Assembly: GCA_963840855.1 (NCBI GenBank)
Contig: CAWJBB010000081.1
Location: 11,367 to 75,366, forward strand
DNA: 64,000 nucleotides
DNA from: an uncultured delta proteobacterium
GTDB lineage: Bacteria; Desulfobacterota; Binatia; UBA9968
Reading direction: 5' to 3'
Part shown: piece after piece, positions 51,970 through 56,002 of the stretch
Layout of the letters: each line of letters starts with the position of its first letter
Position numbering within the stretch: position 1 is the stretch's first letter
Position numbers and translations under genes: made by a program
The notes under the pieces: generated by a model
Databases searched by the model: none
Seen by the model: the letters and a program-made list of their open reading frames with translations, nothing else
What the model was told of the DNA's origin: nothing

Positions 51970-52121
51970 GCTCTTACCATAGGATAACTTTCCACATTCT
52001 CGCAAGTGCGCGTAATTGAACCAGCGGATAATTCCGGGAACCTTTCACTGGGAAAATCAGTTGGTCAACTGAAAGCCCGGAATTGGACACCACATTCAGC
52101 CTTCGATACAATCGCCGGGTC

Positions 52122-52694
52122 ATGAAAGGGATCAAGGCTGGCGATCTTGACCGCGAGCGCTTCGCGTCAGAGATCATGACCTATCTCGATCATCTCTACC
52201 GGGTGGCTTACTATCTCGTCAAAAACGCCGACGAGGCGCAAGATTGCGTTCAAGAGACCTGCGTGCGAGCGCTGGGCTCGCGCAGCCAATTTACTCCGGG
52301 CACCAATATGAAGGCCTGGTTGACGCGAATTCTTTATAACTTTTCTTATGATGTCTACGCGCGCAATCGACGAATGGTTTCCGCCGAGGTTCTGATCGAA
52401 GCTGGAGAGCAGACTAAAGATTTTTGGGAGACGCTGCCGACGGCGAACCCCGGCCCCGAAACGATCGCGCTGGAGCGAGAACTGGGAGCGAAAATCGGCG
52501 ACGCGCTAAGGCGTATTCCCGAGGAGTTTCGCGCGCCGATCGTTTTGGTGGATATGGGTGATTTATCTTACGCGCAGGCCGCGCAGATTCTTTCCTGTCC
52601 TGTCGGCACGATCAGGTCGCGCTTGTCGCGCGGTCGCAAACTGCTGGAGAAGCAGTTGTGCGGCTACGTGGGCATCACCGGAACGGATCGATAA
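52122..52694 (+). CDS. ECF sigma-70 factor
   Basis: AQDCVQET, KAWLTRI and LSYAQAAQILSCPVGTIRSRLSRGR motifs. Confidence 0.92.
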   Translation: MKGIKAGDLDRERFASEIMTYLDHLYRVAYYLVKNADEAQDCVQETCVRALGSRSQFTPGTNMKAWLTRILYNFSYDVYARNRRMVSAEVLIEAGEQTKDFWETLPTANPGPETIALERELGAKIGDALRRIPEEFRAPIVLVDMGDLSYAQAAQILSCPVGTIRSRLSRGRKLLEKQLCGYVGITGTDR

Positions 52695-52697
52695 ACC

Positions 52698-53508
52698 ATG
52701 CGCTGCGACGAAGCCCAAGAACTGATTACCGCTCGAGTGGATGGCGAGCTGAGCGCCGACGAGCAGCTCGCCATCGAGGCTCACTTGAAAATCTGCGGTC
52801 CGTGTCGCGAGGCCTTCACCGCGGAAAGTTACCTGAAGCAGCAAACCAAATTGGCTGGCCGCGGTATCACAGCGCCGGCTTCATTGCGCCAGGCGATCGA
52901 AGCGAGATTTGCCGGAGGGCGGCCAATTTTCATAGGGAGAAGCAGCGAATCCGTGCGGCGGTGGTTTGGTATCTCCGGCTGGCGGCCGGCGTTTGCGGCG
53001 GCGCTTCTTCTCCTTACAGTAGCTTCGGTCATTTATATGAGATGGCCTTCGCAAAACATCGGCCTTTCAGCACTGGAGACGCACGCGAGTATCCTCAATG
53101 GCAACACTGTTCTCGTCCGGTCTGGCGATCCTGCGGCAATGAGAGACGAGCTGGCCCGGGCAGTGGGTGAGCGTTTTAGGCCGGTAGCTTTCGATCTCTC
53201 TATAATGAAGCTTTACCCGGTTTCCGGCTTCGTTCAGAAAGTCGGTCACCGTGAAGTGCTCGTCACGGTTTATCAAGGCGACGGTCCCACGATTACCTGT
53301 TTCACTTTTCTCGGCAGCGAAGCCGACGCGCCCGACGGCGCGGAGCGGTTCTACGATGCCGACATGCGGCTCGACTTTTATTCGTTCTCGCGCGGCGGGT
53401 GTGAACGGACTCCTGCATCGAGAAGGGGAGGTAATCTGCCTGCTGGTGTCAAAAATGCCGGCCGCCGACCTGCTCGCAATGATTCGTGGAAAATCAGCCC
53501 ACGCGTAA
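52698..53508 (+). CDS. Zinc-binding (HxxxCxxC) transmembrane anti-sigma factor, frameshifted at ~53400
   Basis: AHLKICGPC and one TM helix. After one base is removed the C-terminus continues GVNGLLHREGEVICLLVSKM to a stop at 53508. Confidence 0.8.
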
Positions 53509-53619
53509 ACCGGCAGGCGGTCGGAGTGTTGGAGTACTGGAGCGATGGTTCTAATTAACAGGTTGCTGAAAAACTCTCTCGGAGTCCTTCGACTAGGCTC
53601 AGAGCCTTATATTAGGTCT

Positions 53620-53815
53620 GTTGCAGATTATCATATTGGAGATCATGTTTATGTGACACTGATTTCAAGAGCTTGCTGGAATGAGGACCATCGGGGCCTA
53701 ATCCCTCTCACGAGGATCAAGGGCAGACTGTCCCGTCCAGTAAGAGAACGGATCTGAGGTTCAATAGAAAGTTGTCCCTTTGTTGAGGACTTATATAAGG
53801 CGAACTTTCCGTTCA
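53620..53815 (+). ncRNA. IS110 bridge RNA (5' stem-loop, target-binding loop, donor-binding loop)
   Basis: Guides TCGGGGCCT (53691-53699), AGGGCAG+AC (53720-53728), ATAGAAAGT (53764-53772) and ATATAAG+GC (53793-53801) match the target and donor. Closing stems CTTGCTGGA/TCCAGTAAG and GAACGGA/TCCGTTC. Ends approximate. Confidence 0.85.
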
Positions 53816-53858
53816 TAGCTATTGGAATTGGAAGAACACAACCAAGGAGGAAGAGAGA

Positions 53859-55084
53859 GTGAAACGATACTATGTGGGAGTGGATTGGGCTGATGAATTT
53901 CACCAGGTATGGGTCAGCGATGCCGAGGGCAAGAAAGTAGCCGAGATGAAGGTTGAGCAGAGTCCCAAGGGCATGGGCGAGTTTGGCCGTTGGTTCCATG
54001 AACGTCAGGCAGAACAGATAGAGCTTTGGGCGGCCATCGAGAAGCCCCAGGGGCGGATTGTGGATTTTCTGTTGGACCACGGGGTAGTGGTCTATCCGGT
54101 TAATCCCAAGGCCCTGGACCGGGTCAGGGACCGGTTTCGCATGAGCCAATCCAAGAGCGACTCCTTTGATGCTCATGTGTTGGCGGACTTTGTCAGGACC
54201 GATCATGCTCATTTGCGAGCTCTTGAGCCTAACTCTGCTCCGGCCCAAGAGTTTAAGATGCTCACCCGGGATCACCACCGATTGGGGCGCCATAAGACTC
54301 GGCTCATCAATCAGATCGAGGCAACGCTCAAAGAGTATTACCCTCGCCCCCTGGAGGTTTTCTCTGATCTGGAATCGAAGATTGCGTTGGATTTTCTACC
54401 CAGTATCCGACTCCACGGGCACTGTCTGATCTTACCCGTAGAAAATGGAACCGCTTTGCCAAGCGCGAGCACCATCTCAGTGAGGCGCGCTGTAAAGAGC
54501 TGTGGGAGAAGCTGAACCAGCCGCAGTTGGGAATTCCAGAACACGTGATCAGAGCCAAGGCGCAATTGCTTTTGGTGCTCGTCGCTCAGCTTAAGGCCTT
54601 GGCTCAGGCGGTGGAGAGCTACAGCGAGGAGATCCAACGTTTTTTCGCCTCTATGCCGGCGGCTAAGCTTGCGCAGACACTGCCGGGAGGAAAAAGTGGG
54701 ACCATCGTACCGATGCTTTGGGCCGAGCTGGGCGATGTCAAGAGCCGATGGCAATCCTTTCGTCACCTTCAAGCCGAAGCGGGAGGGGTCCCGGTAACCC
54801 AATCCAGCGGCAAGAGCCATGTCGTACTGTTTCGTTTTGCCTGTAACAAGCTGATGCGATACGCCTCGTACTGGTTGTCGTTTAACTCGCTCAATCGCTG
54901 TGAGTGGGCGAACAAGTACTATCGCGACCAACGGGCGAAAGGACATCATCATCCCCAAGCGCTTAGGGCTTTGGCAGCGAAGTGGTTGAAAATTATTTTC
55001 ATCATGTGGAGAGACGATAAGCCGTACGATGAGAACTATCACTTGGCGAACATCGCCCGTCAGACGATGCGCCAGGCGGCATGA
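53859..55084 (+). CDS. IS110 recombinase (DEDD RuvC-like plus Tnp domain), frameshifted at ~54397
   Basis: YVGVDWA, AIE and KSDSFDA catalytic motifs; C-terminal AGGVPVTQSSGK (catalytic Ser) and ALRALAAKW. Adding one base joins the halves (LDFLTQYPTP). AGGAGG RBS. Confidence 0.92.
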
Positions 55085-55103
55085 AAAAAAATAAACAGGG
55101 GAC

Positions 55104-55126
55104 TTGACAAGTCTCATAGAATGTCT
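55104..55126 (+). promoter_or_regulatory. -35 half of the circle-junction sigma70 promoter (-10 half TATATT at 53608-53613)
   Basis: Joining the ends at the CT core gives TTGACA-17 nt-TATATT. Confidence 0.85.
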
Positions 55127-55262
55127 GCCCTGTTTATCGAAGGGACGAACGGAGGGGAATTGATACCGTTGATGAATTTCCGTTCATGCTGAGACCTCGA
55201 AGCATTCCGAACCGTTTTTCAGCGACCTGCTAACTCACAACACTCCGTATTTTCCGCTCTGA

Positions 55263-55291
55263 TTGACAACCAGTGGTGAATTCCATACAGT
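55263..55291 (+). promoter_or_regulatory. Sigma70-type promoter for tRNA-Gly
   Basis: TTGACA-17 nt-TACAGT ending 26 bp before the tRNA. Confidence 0.65.
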
Positions 55292-55317
55292 TCAATCGCT
55301 TCTCCGCCTAACCCTGA

Positions 55318-55392
<75 letters not shown>

Positions 55393-55857
55393 AACCTCTC
55401 TAAAGTCAATCTCATATCGTTCTACGCGATCAATATATTGGCCCAGTCTTGTCCCATTCAGCGTGACAAAGACCACGAACACCGATTATGACTCGCGCAA
55501 AGTCGCAAAGGGCGCCAAGTTAAGCGGATTGCACCTGGACTAATACCGCAAAAATATTCTCCTCTTTTGGCTGATTCGAGATCTCGAGACGCCGACATAC
55601 CAAACGCGCGGATCATTGTTGACTTGCTTGAGGTACGCCGACGTGACGCAGTCGGGGAGGTGTCTCGATGAATCAGCCGATCACTTCGAAACCATCTTCA
55701 AATCCGCCGCAGGGTTTGCATTCGGACTCTGGCGGAAAGCAAAGCATGCAGAGCTCGGCGCCTTCCATTTCTCTTCCTGAGGTCGGCGCAGTAGAAGCGG
55801 ACAAGTAAGTATGAACACATTCGATTCGTATTAACCGGCGCGCAACGGTCTACGCAA

Positions 55858-55884
55858 TTTTGGATACACCTACTGTATCCAAAA
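55858..55884. promoter_or_regulatory. Perfect dyad, candidate enhancer-binding-protein site
   Basis: TTTTGGATACA-cctac-TGTATCCAAAA (11-bp arms), ~100 bp upstream of the -24/-12 motif. Confidence 0.6.
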
Positions 55885-55986
55885 GTTGCCTATATGTTCA
55901 CTTATCAACGTAAGCTCATGCAGTTCGCACAAGTATTTTTGCAGTCATGCGGAGAACTTCATCATTTCAAGCGAGGAACGGTGACA

Positions 55987-56002
55987 TGGCATTGTTATTG
56001 CT
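55987..56002 (+). promoter_or_regulatory. Sigma54 (-24/-12) promoter
   Basis: TGGCATTGTTATTGCT fits TGGC-N(8)-TGC with exact GG-N10-GC spacing. Confidence 0.65.

Follow-up and report, generated by a model that had tools for sequence, protein, structure and literature searches.

We analysed a stretch of 64,000 nucleotides (hereafter the window, meaning the whole stretch) from an uncultured delta proteobacterium (GTDB lineage Bacteria; Desulfobacterota; Binatia; UBA9968; GenBank assembly GCA_963840855.1, contig CAWJBB010000081.1, positions 11,367 to 75,366) and found that it very probably contains one copy of an IS110-family insertion sequence (IS) with an IS621-type bridge RNA, including handshake guides, encoded in its left non-coding end; we put the probability of this reading at about 0.88. 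The starting point is two matches of nine nucleotides to which an earlier note on this DNA had drawn attention, and both proved to be exact: AGGGCAGAC (53720-53728), in the left end, is the reverse complement of the right junction of the element, GTCTGCCCT (55123-55131), and ATATAAGGC (53793-53801), also in the left end, is the reverse complement of the left junction, GCCTTATAT (53604-53612). Neither match can be extended, the adjoining positions (53719/55132, 53729/55122, 53792/53613 and 53802/53603) being non-complementary, and each comprises exactly nine bases, namely the five of a right guide, two core-pairing bases (AG) and two handshake bases.

By analogy with IS621, the RNA would be transcribed and bound by the recombinase, with a left and a right target guide (LTG and RTG) in its target-binding loop and a left and a right donor guide (LDG and RDG) in its donor-binding loop (coordinates in Table 1). 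The AG after each right guide would pair with the CT core, and the two handshake bases come next. The recombinase, with a predicted DEDD RuvC-like domain and a Tnp domain carrying the serine nucleophile, would cut both top strands after CT and exchange them, whereupon the target-loop AC would pair with T7-G6 of the incoming donor strand and the donor-loop GC with C7-G6 of the incoming target strand. Because of this exchange, the integrated element would show each 9-mer as the perfect complement of one junction, which is the state of the insertion product. Under the IS621 rule, whereby there are more RNA-DNA pairs after exchange than before it, such an arrangement would favour insertion and disfavour excision, this being the kinetic role that the handshake bases are presumed to have.

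Ends of the element, guide segments and the predicted bridge RNA

The junctions were defined independently of the 9-mer matches, by means of copy boundaries. The genome to which the window belongs (7.1 Mb, 93 contigs) has two further copies of the element at 98-100% identity and two at 78%. The identity that the window copy shares with the two near-identical copies spans 53604-55131 and 53602-55132, respectively, and the flanks beyond are unrelated. In addition, an empty paralogous repeat in another contig (C67) has both flank types joined, with nothing between them. The limits of copy identity and this empty site place the element at 53608-55126 (1,519 bp, counting the right core but not the left) with CT at either end, and the ends given in the earlier note are thereby confirmed. 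All five in-genome copies read ..C-CT-TATAT on the left and ..GT-CT-G(C/T)CC(T/C) on the right, with the CT dinucleotide core at both boundaries. The 1.5-kb repeat, with at least five copies in the genome, is thus explained as an IS110-family element. The window stretch or its relatives are also present in contigs of many soil metagenomes and of six RNA libraries among the public runs. Contigs that join the flanks without the element (e.g., in run X16, from 53606 to 55132 with four other letters between) were considered as evidence of excision and rejected, as they fit copies of the paralogous repeat that are 90% alike.

Covariation was examined in two sets of homologous loci. Set A consists of the window copy, the four other copies in its genome and 72 of 79 loci from species-representative genomes (37-95% protein identity), 77 rows in all; the right side could be used in 67 of them, the left side in 67 and both sides in 60. 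Set B consists of 75 of 80 metagenome-contig loci of one sister clade (right side usable in 65, left side in 67, both sides in 58). Rows without enough flank or without an end motif were left out of these usable counts. The guide segments were taken as the alignment columns of the window 9-mers and the junctions were located by conserved end motifs, which avoids circularity. One locus, L039, which lies on the same contig as L016 (unpublished genome G009), enters the right-junction count of set A only, and no claim depends on it.

The RTG changes together with the right target half-site (RT), which is host DNA. At 55 of the 67 loci of set A, all five positions form Watson-Crick pairs, with four of five paired at 11 loci and three of five at one, and this holds over 30 distinct RTGs; the average is 4.80 pairs, compared to 2.06 for shuffled partners (maximum 2.58). 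In set B, 50 of the 65 loci are fully paired and 11 have four of five pairs, four loci being worse. The same can be seen within a single genome, where copy L003 has the RTG AGGAC beside the flank GTCCT and the window copy has AGGGC beside GCCCT. The LTG, which is of the same sense as the left target half-site (LT), would pair with the bottom strand; in the window, it corresponds to LT by five Watson-Crick pairs and two G:T wobbles out of seven. Across set A (n = 67), the best same-sense match of the LTG to its own LT averages 6.09 of 7, compared to 4.46 for shuffled partners (maximum 4.77).

The cores follow the same rule. The left core of set A is CT at 63 loci, CC at three and CA at one, and the core-pairing bases of the RNA fit the core in every case. 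Natural core variants are CC in L099, L100 and L102 and CA in L085 and L119, with concerted changes in the two cores and in the bases that pair with them after either right guide (GG/CC, TG/CA). On the donor side, the LDG and the left donor half-site (LD) co-vary among relatives (AGAAAGT, AGGAAGT, AGGAGGT and AGAATGT), and the two bases after the LDG (TG in the window) match the T of the core in no version. The RDG and the right donor half-site (RD) read ATATA/TATAT at 48, GTATA/TATAC at 16 and CTATA/TATAG at one of the 67 loci of set A, the other two being imperfect. This near constancy may be due to TATAT doubling as a promoter element.

The predicted RNA has a structure that fits these guides. 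The minimum free energy (MFE) fold of 53620-53825 has two stem-loop domains, and the RNAalifold consensus of 39 homologous left ends contains 25 pairs, 16 of them with compensatory changes. Both 9-mers form the 3′ strand of the two internal loops, ending one base and no base ahead of the closing stem, respectively. The 5′ strands of the loops are TCGGGGC-CT, in the sense of the left flank TCAGAGC-CT, and AGAAAGT, in the sense of the pre-core AGAATGT. This predicted arrangement of LTG, RTG, LDG and RDG is the layout of IS621, and all four guide segments lie upstream of the recombinase gene (53691-53801), in the left non-coding end. A search of 53000-56000 against Rfam 15, at E values up to 1, returned the neighbouring tRNA only and no RNA family over the left end. 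Among relatives, the distance from the end of the LTG to the inner hairpin varies by at most 2 nt (tail of 5, 6 or 7; e.g., L064, L076 and L103 compared to 53691-53704 in the window), and with the shortest tail the RNA is without core-matching bases after the LTG, GA replacing CT.

The right and left ends each contribute a part of a putative promoter. When the ends are joined as in an excised circle, the sequence computed across the junction of right end and left end (RE-LE) reads TTGACA-17 nt-TATATT. Of 60 loci, 54 have the -35-like TTGAC[AT], and in 42 of those the spacer is 17 nt long. For IS110 elements, the accessible part of one study describes a promoter that is rebuilt across the RE-LE junction (PMC11208160).

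Two metagenome contigs depart from the usual arrangement at the right end. In L133, the right core is followed by the complete LT-CT-RT of its own lineage, so that the nine bases of LT+CT stand on both sides of the element, and L116 has a near-target of a different lineage in its right flank. Assembly chimerism or a non-standard pathway could account for these cases.

Recombinase gene and its frameshift

The family assignment rests on the recombinase gene. Pfam PF01548 (DEDD_Tnp_IS110, E 2e-32) matches the first open reading frame (ORF), 53859-54515, and PF02371 (Transposase_20, E 1.7e-5) the second, 54527-55084, and the intact paralogue scores 153.6 bits with NCBIfam NF033542, "IS110 family RNA-guided transposase" (cut-off 140). 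In a search of the PDB, the recombinase matched IS621 (E 9.5e-8) and ISCro4 (PDB 9t56, E 4e-7) only, both weakly. Residues D9, E61, D101, D104 and S317 are invariant among 25 homologues and, allowing for a two-residue chain offset, align with D11, E60, D102, D105 and S241 of IS621. Only 42 bp separate the stop codon from the end of the element.

The window copy of this gene is broken. At the site of the 1-bp deletion, the window reads TTTTCT-ACCC, compared to TTTTCTCACCC in the four other in-genome copies, and the extra C is also present in contigs of all four public runs examined (X1, X15, X16 and X17). The deletion, which falls after 54397, is private to the window copy and could also be an assembly error. 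Taken as it stands, the frameshift falls between the parts of the gene for the RuvC-like and Tnp domains and leaves these domains in different frames, so that the window copy cannot make the recombinase; in annotation, it should be marked as defective.

This raises the question of whether the pairing described above is a mere fossil, the window element being a dead insertion in which nothing operates any longer. The position of the deletion between the two domains and the presence of the extra base in every other copy and run examined agree with this. However, the ends, cores, guides and RNA region of the window copy are identical to those of copy L002, which has an open 408-aa frame. Since the ends and the RNA are intact and the same as in an intact copy, mobilisation in trans is conceivable. 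The IS621 bridge RNA functions in trans, according to the accessible part of one report (PMC11208160), which makes complementation possible, and, as said, the deletion could be an assembly error. We consider that the fossil reading is an unlikely one, although it is the strongest of the alternatives to a bridge-RNA element with handshake guides.

Decayed or truncated relatives also occur. In L067 and L068 (also in the L021-L023 set), the part of the left end that normally precedes the target loop is gone and there is an in-frame TAA, and L107, also among L021-L023, has lost both end motifs and has a TGA stop in frame.

Handshake bases in the window copy and its relatives

In the accessible parts of two studies of IS621, its handshake guides (bridge RNA positions 81-82 and 166-167) are described as pairing, once the top strands have been exchanged, with the non-cognate DNA at positions 7 and 6, a pre-exchange configuration of these bases as blocking recombination, and the wild-type element as going from one to three Watson-Crick handshake pairs on exchange (PMC11208158, PMC13626964). 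The earlier note had proposed a layout of this kind for the window, with a bias towards the forward reaction, and this is borne out in that the handshake dinucleotide of either loop is complementary to the other DNA at positions 7 and 6. In the following, t1-t7 and d1-d7 denote the positions of LT and LD, position 7 being next to the core.

After exchange, all four handshake bases of the window copy are matched by Watson-Crick partners. Before exchange, A·C would stay unpaired, G·T would be a wobble and both C:G contacts would be pairs, that is, two Watson-Crick pairs and one wobble. Since t6 and d6 are both G, C53728 and C53801 also form pairs with the cognate DNA prior to exchange. Hence the claim that the handshake bases can pair only after strand exchange was overstated: only position 7 discriminates, and the claim is fully true for one base, the target-loop A, and true for a second, the donor-loop G, only as a wobble with dT7 that gives way to a Watson-Crick pair. 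The gain from exchange in the window copy comes from position 7 only, where the target loop goes from A·C to A:T and the donor loop from G·T to G:C. In summary, the first reading holds for the most part, and what needs correcting is the share of each nine-of-nine match that discriminates between the two states.

The position-7 contacts are nearly constant among relatives. The first base of the target-loop handshake is A and faces T at d7 in all 67 loci of set A and all 65 of set B. The first base of the donor-loop handshake is G in all usable rows and meets t7 as G:C in 101, G:T in 6 and G:G in 2 of the 109 unique left junctions. In set A, t7 is C in 58 of 63 unique targets, and t1-t6 vary freely. 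Read from the junctions, these position-7 identities are as in IS621. When both handshake positions are counted, Watson-Crick pairs are more numerous after exchange than before it at 58 of 60 loci in set A and 56 of 58 in set B, the remainder being equal and none having fewer. Four such pairs are available after exchange at 31 loci of set A, three at 26 and two at 3, and the corresponding numbers for set B are 31, 25 and 2. Both 9-mers are fully complementary to their junctions at 24 of the 60 and 21 of the 58 loci, respectively.

The second handshake base behaves differently in the two loops. In the target loop, facing a donor GT, set A has AC at 62, AG at 4 and AT at one of 67 loci, and set B has AC at 52 and AG at 13 of 65. 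In the sub-lineage with AG (L055, L059, L061, L082 and the 13 loci of set B), donor position 6 is still G; most of these loci have G at t6, and the change from C to G also removes the possible pre-exchange C:G pair with the cognate target. In the donor loop, where the second base is G (19 unique junctions), t6 is C in 11 and T in 8 and never G or A; where it is C (90 unique junctions), t6 is G in 62, C in 14, T in 8 and A in 6. This association has a permutation p < 5e-5 on the 109 unique junctions, with relatedness ignored.

Several observations weigh against an IS621-type bridge RNA with handshake guides, and they concern the RNA, the guides and the handshake bases in turn. The RNA is predicted here from contig sequence, and its single-sequence fold barely beats shuffled sequences (z = -1.65; 15 of 200 shuffles as good). 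The window LDG AGAAAGT has one mismatch to its own LD AGAATGT, and in set B the RTG and RT form none of five pairs at one locus and two of five at another, the right flanks there being the target of another lineage. As to the handshake bases, those facing position 7 and their partners are invariant, so that covariation is uninformative there and fixation for protein contacts would look the same. In the target loop, the second base changes from C to G or T while d6 stays G, and so the pair is lost in those lineages. In the donor loop, the second base changes about eight times on a FastTree of the recombinases, and a sign test on independent pairs is not significant: of five well-supported pairs, about two differ in the expected direction, none in the opposite direction and about three show no difference (this tree excludes the window row, which is misplaced owing to its frameshifted translation, and copy L013 stands in for it). 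Moreover, all 26 unique left junctions of the window clade (protein identity of 64% or more) have GC as the donor-loop handshake, with t6 being G in 11, C in 6, T in 6 and A in 3. As this C is fixed in the window clade, the match at the ninth base of the left junction is owed to the target of this copy and not to tuning of the RNA. Covariation across homologues, which the earlier note had named as a check, thus gives a divided answer: it is uninformative at position 7, none is seen at the second base of the target loop, and it is present at the second base of the donor loop in other clades, where its phylogenetic basis is thin.

The handshake observations would also be expected if the guides were real and the bases after the right guides were fixed for structure or protein contact, with handshake pairing playing no part. 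The constancy of the first base and its partner, the uncompensated AG or AT opposite a G at d6 (5 of 67 and 13 of 65 loci), the C that the window clade keeps whatever the base at t6, and the loss of significance once the tree is taken into account are all in line with this explanation. Against it stands the arrangement at position 7, in which A faces target C before exchange and donor T after it, and G faces donor T before and target C after. It is this arrangement that is experimentally important in IS621, as far as the accessible parts of the IS621 studies go, and it has been kept although the recombinase is only remotely similar to that of IS621. Furthermore, a G at the second donor-loop position faces G or A in 0 of 19 junctions, and handshake pairs are more numerous after exchange than before it at 114 of 118 loci, the other four being equal. 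We therefore regard fixation of these bases without any handshake pairing as improbable, and clearly more so than the fossil reading.

A further suggestion, which builds on the bridge-RNA reading, is more tentative. It is possible, though we find it rather doubtful, that both handshake positions and not just position 7 are under selection in this soil-bacterial IS110 subfamily, which would make it a natural "post-handshake-optimised" bridge system. Lineages with a pyrimidine at t6 would then have switched the second donor-loop base from C to G (pairable in 19 of 19 junctions), and the uncompensated change from C to G in the target loop would be a second solution, by which the C:G6 pair that the cognate target could form before exchange is lost. 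On this view, one would expect the subfamily to be biased towards insertion, and against excision, more strongly than IS621.

Finally, the 9-mers could have arisen by chance, or be protein-bound repeats at or near the ends of a classical transposon, and not be RNA guides at all. Short inverted repeats near IS ends are common, and on both strands of the window AGGGCAGAC is found at three places, the two already named and position 971 (0.43 expected from shuffled sequence; 2 of 100 shuffles reach three). ATATAAGGC is found at its two named places only (0.11 expected; 1 of 100 shuffles reaches two), and coincidence is thus as unlikely as the earlier note had held. We give this explanation practically no credence, as, on the right side, host DNA beyond the element supplies five of the nine bases, and these change with the RTG in 30 versions, which repeats internal to the element cannot do, and as the covariation of RTG, LTG, core and LDG with their DNA partners contradicts both chance and protein-bound terminal repeats.

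Surroundings of the element and comparison with known systems

The features of the element are collected in Table 1.

Table 1. Features of the IS110-family element in the window (window positions; all on the + strand).
Feature	Position	Strand	Basis or remark
IS110-family insertion sequence	53608..55126	+	copy boundaries, empty paralogous site; family assignment by Pfam/NCBIfam
LT, left target half-site TCAGAGC (t1-t7; t6 t7 = GC)	53599..53605	+	host DNA, REP-like repeat; differs between 3 copies
Left CT core	53606..53607	+	CT at both boundaries of all 5 in-genome copies
RD TATAT (53608-53612), doubling as -10-like TATATT	53608..53613	+	RDG/RD pairs; hexamer faces the right-end -35 in the circular form only
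Predicted bridge RNA	53620..53815	+	5′ end approximate, from the -10 box; 3′ limit is the GAACGG/CCGTTC stem of the single-sequence fold
Predicted target-binding domain	53673..53743	+	outer stem 53673-53680/53736-53743; consensus fold
Target-binding loop, closing stem GGAC/GTCC	53685-53688/53730-53733	+	consensus fold
LTG, left target guide TCGGGGC (53691-53697) + CT (53698-53699)	53691..53699	+	sense of LT+core; would pair with the bottom strand
Target-binding loop, inner hairpin ATCC/GGAT	53701-53704/53714-53717	+	consensus fold
RTG, right target guide AGGGC	53720..53724	+	pairs with the top strand of RT GCCCT
Core-pairing AG, target-binding loop	53725..53726	+	AG/CT 64, GG/CC 2, TG/CA 1 of 67 (set A)
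Target-loop handshake AC (A53727, C53728)	53727..53728	+	A:donor T7 (55124); C:donor G6 (55123); putative function by analogy with IS621
Predicted donor-binding domain	53758..53806	+	closing stem GGTT 53758-53761/AACT 53803-53806; consensus fold
LDG, left donor guide AGAAAGT	53766..53772	+	sense of LD
Donor-binding loop, inner hairpin GTCC/GGAC	53774-53777/53787-53790	+	consensus fold
RDG, right donor guide ATATA	53793..53797	+	pairs with the top strand of RD TATAT
Core-pairing AG, donor-binding loop	53798..53799	+	AG/CT 63, GG/CC 3, TG/CA 1 of 67 (set A)
Donor-loop handshake GC (G53800, C53801)	53800..53801	+	G:target C7 (53605); C:target G6 (53604)
Recombinase gene, broken by a 1-bp deletion after 54397	53859..55084	+	ORFs 53859-54515 and 54527-55084; 408 aa in other copies
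-35-like hexamer TTGACA	55104..55109	+	right end, 17 nt ahead of the core end
LD, left donor half-site AGAATGT (d1-d7; d6 d7 = GT)	55118..55124	+	GT in 59/59 unique right junctions
Right CT core	55125..55126	+	sequence of the window, copies and set A loci
RT, right target half-site GCCCT	55127..55131	+	host DNA; copy comparison, covariation with RTG

The element lies inside a repeated, partly palindromic intergenic unit (53545-53603 and 55132-55240), in which CAGGTTGCTGAAAAAC on the left faces GTTTTTCAGCGACCTG on the right, and the inverted repeats CCTTCGA (53586-53592) and TCGAAGG (55137-55143) stand around the insertion point. A search of the genome gave 10 matches to either flank at eight other places, with both flank types adjacent at two of them, and G(C/T)CCTGAG...TCGAAGG is also seen in the right flank of several relatives. 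The repeat around the insertion looks like a target family similar to repetitive extragenic palindromes (REP-like). When the genome was searched for unoccupied, fully wobble-compatible targets with the pattern YCRRRRCCTGYYYT, there were 16 matches compared to 20 for the reversed control, and hence no enrichment. About 190 bp downstream of the element is a tRNA-Gly (CCC) gene (55318-55392, + strand). Upstream of the element, the ORF 52083-52694 is presumably an ECF-type sigma factor, judging by the resemblance of its translation, and it is followed by the ORF 52698-53558, which by resemblance we take to be an anti-sigma factor with an N-terminal Cys/His motif.

These results leave the known bridge-RNA mechanism unchanged. 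Their significance is that the guide code of IS621, including the handshake bases, can be read directly from the junctions of a remotely related recombinase family, and that the position-7 handshake arrangement is unchanged over that evolutionary distance. In addition, the roughly 150 loci form a natural catalogue of matched guide-target pairs, with 30 distinct RTGs in one set, three cores and two versions of the donor-loop handshake, which may aid the choice or design of bridge recombinases.

Among known systems, the IS1111-group elements with seekRNA are RNA-guided DEDD recombinases of the same superfamily, in which the guide RNA lies downstream of the recombinase gene; in the window element, the predicted guide RNA is upstream, in the left end, which sets it apart from that group. 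ISPpu10, an IS110 element of Pseudomonas putida that has one conserved intergenic repeat as its target, according to the accessible part of its description (bioRxiv 10.64898/2026.03.19.712850), resembles the window element in being inserted into a repeated intergenic sequence, but the other two near-identical copies here have unrelated left flanks. The ISCro4 recombinase, the second PDB match, is of the same family and no closer than IS621. The same applies to IS622, like ISCro4 a bridge recombinase for genome engineering, as far as the accessible part of the source shows (bioRxiv 10.1101/2025.05.14.653916).

The most informative comparison is with IS621 of Escherichia coli (structures 8WT6-8WT9, 9WHX and 9WHY). 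Both elements have a recombinase of two domains, with the DEDD residues and the catalytic serine, and CT as the core at either end. In both, the left end holds a bridge RNA (predicted in the window) whose two loops each contain an inner hairpin between a left and a right guide, followed by the core-pairing and handshake bases. They are also alike in the target-loop A with donor T7, the donor-loop G with target C7, GC at target positions 6-7, and a promoter divided between the right and left ends. Extended Data Figure 7 of one of the IS621 studies, from what is accessible of it, presents covariation across orthologues and may already cover lineages like that of the window (PMC11208158). The two elements differ in the recombinase, which is 408 aa long here, compared to a solved chain of 328 residues, and only remotely similar. 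They also differ in donor positions 6-7, which are GT here and AT in IS621, and in the wild-type handshake bases, which are AC/GC here and AU/GU in IS621. As a result of these bases, the window element would have four Watson-Crick handshake pairs after exchange and two before it, compared to three and one in IS621, and the full four pairs, which had to be engineered into IS621, would be natural in the window element. The hosts differ as well, being uncultured soil and groundwater bacteria here, i.e., Binatia, Methylomirabilota/Rokubacteria, Nitrospirales and others. In summary, the window element has every sequence-level feature of an IS110-group bridge-RNA element with IS621-type handshake guides.

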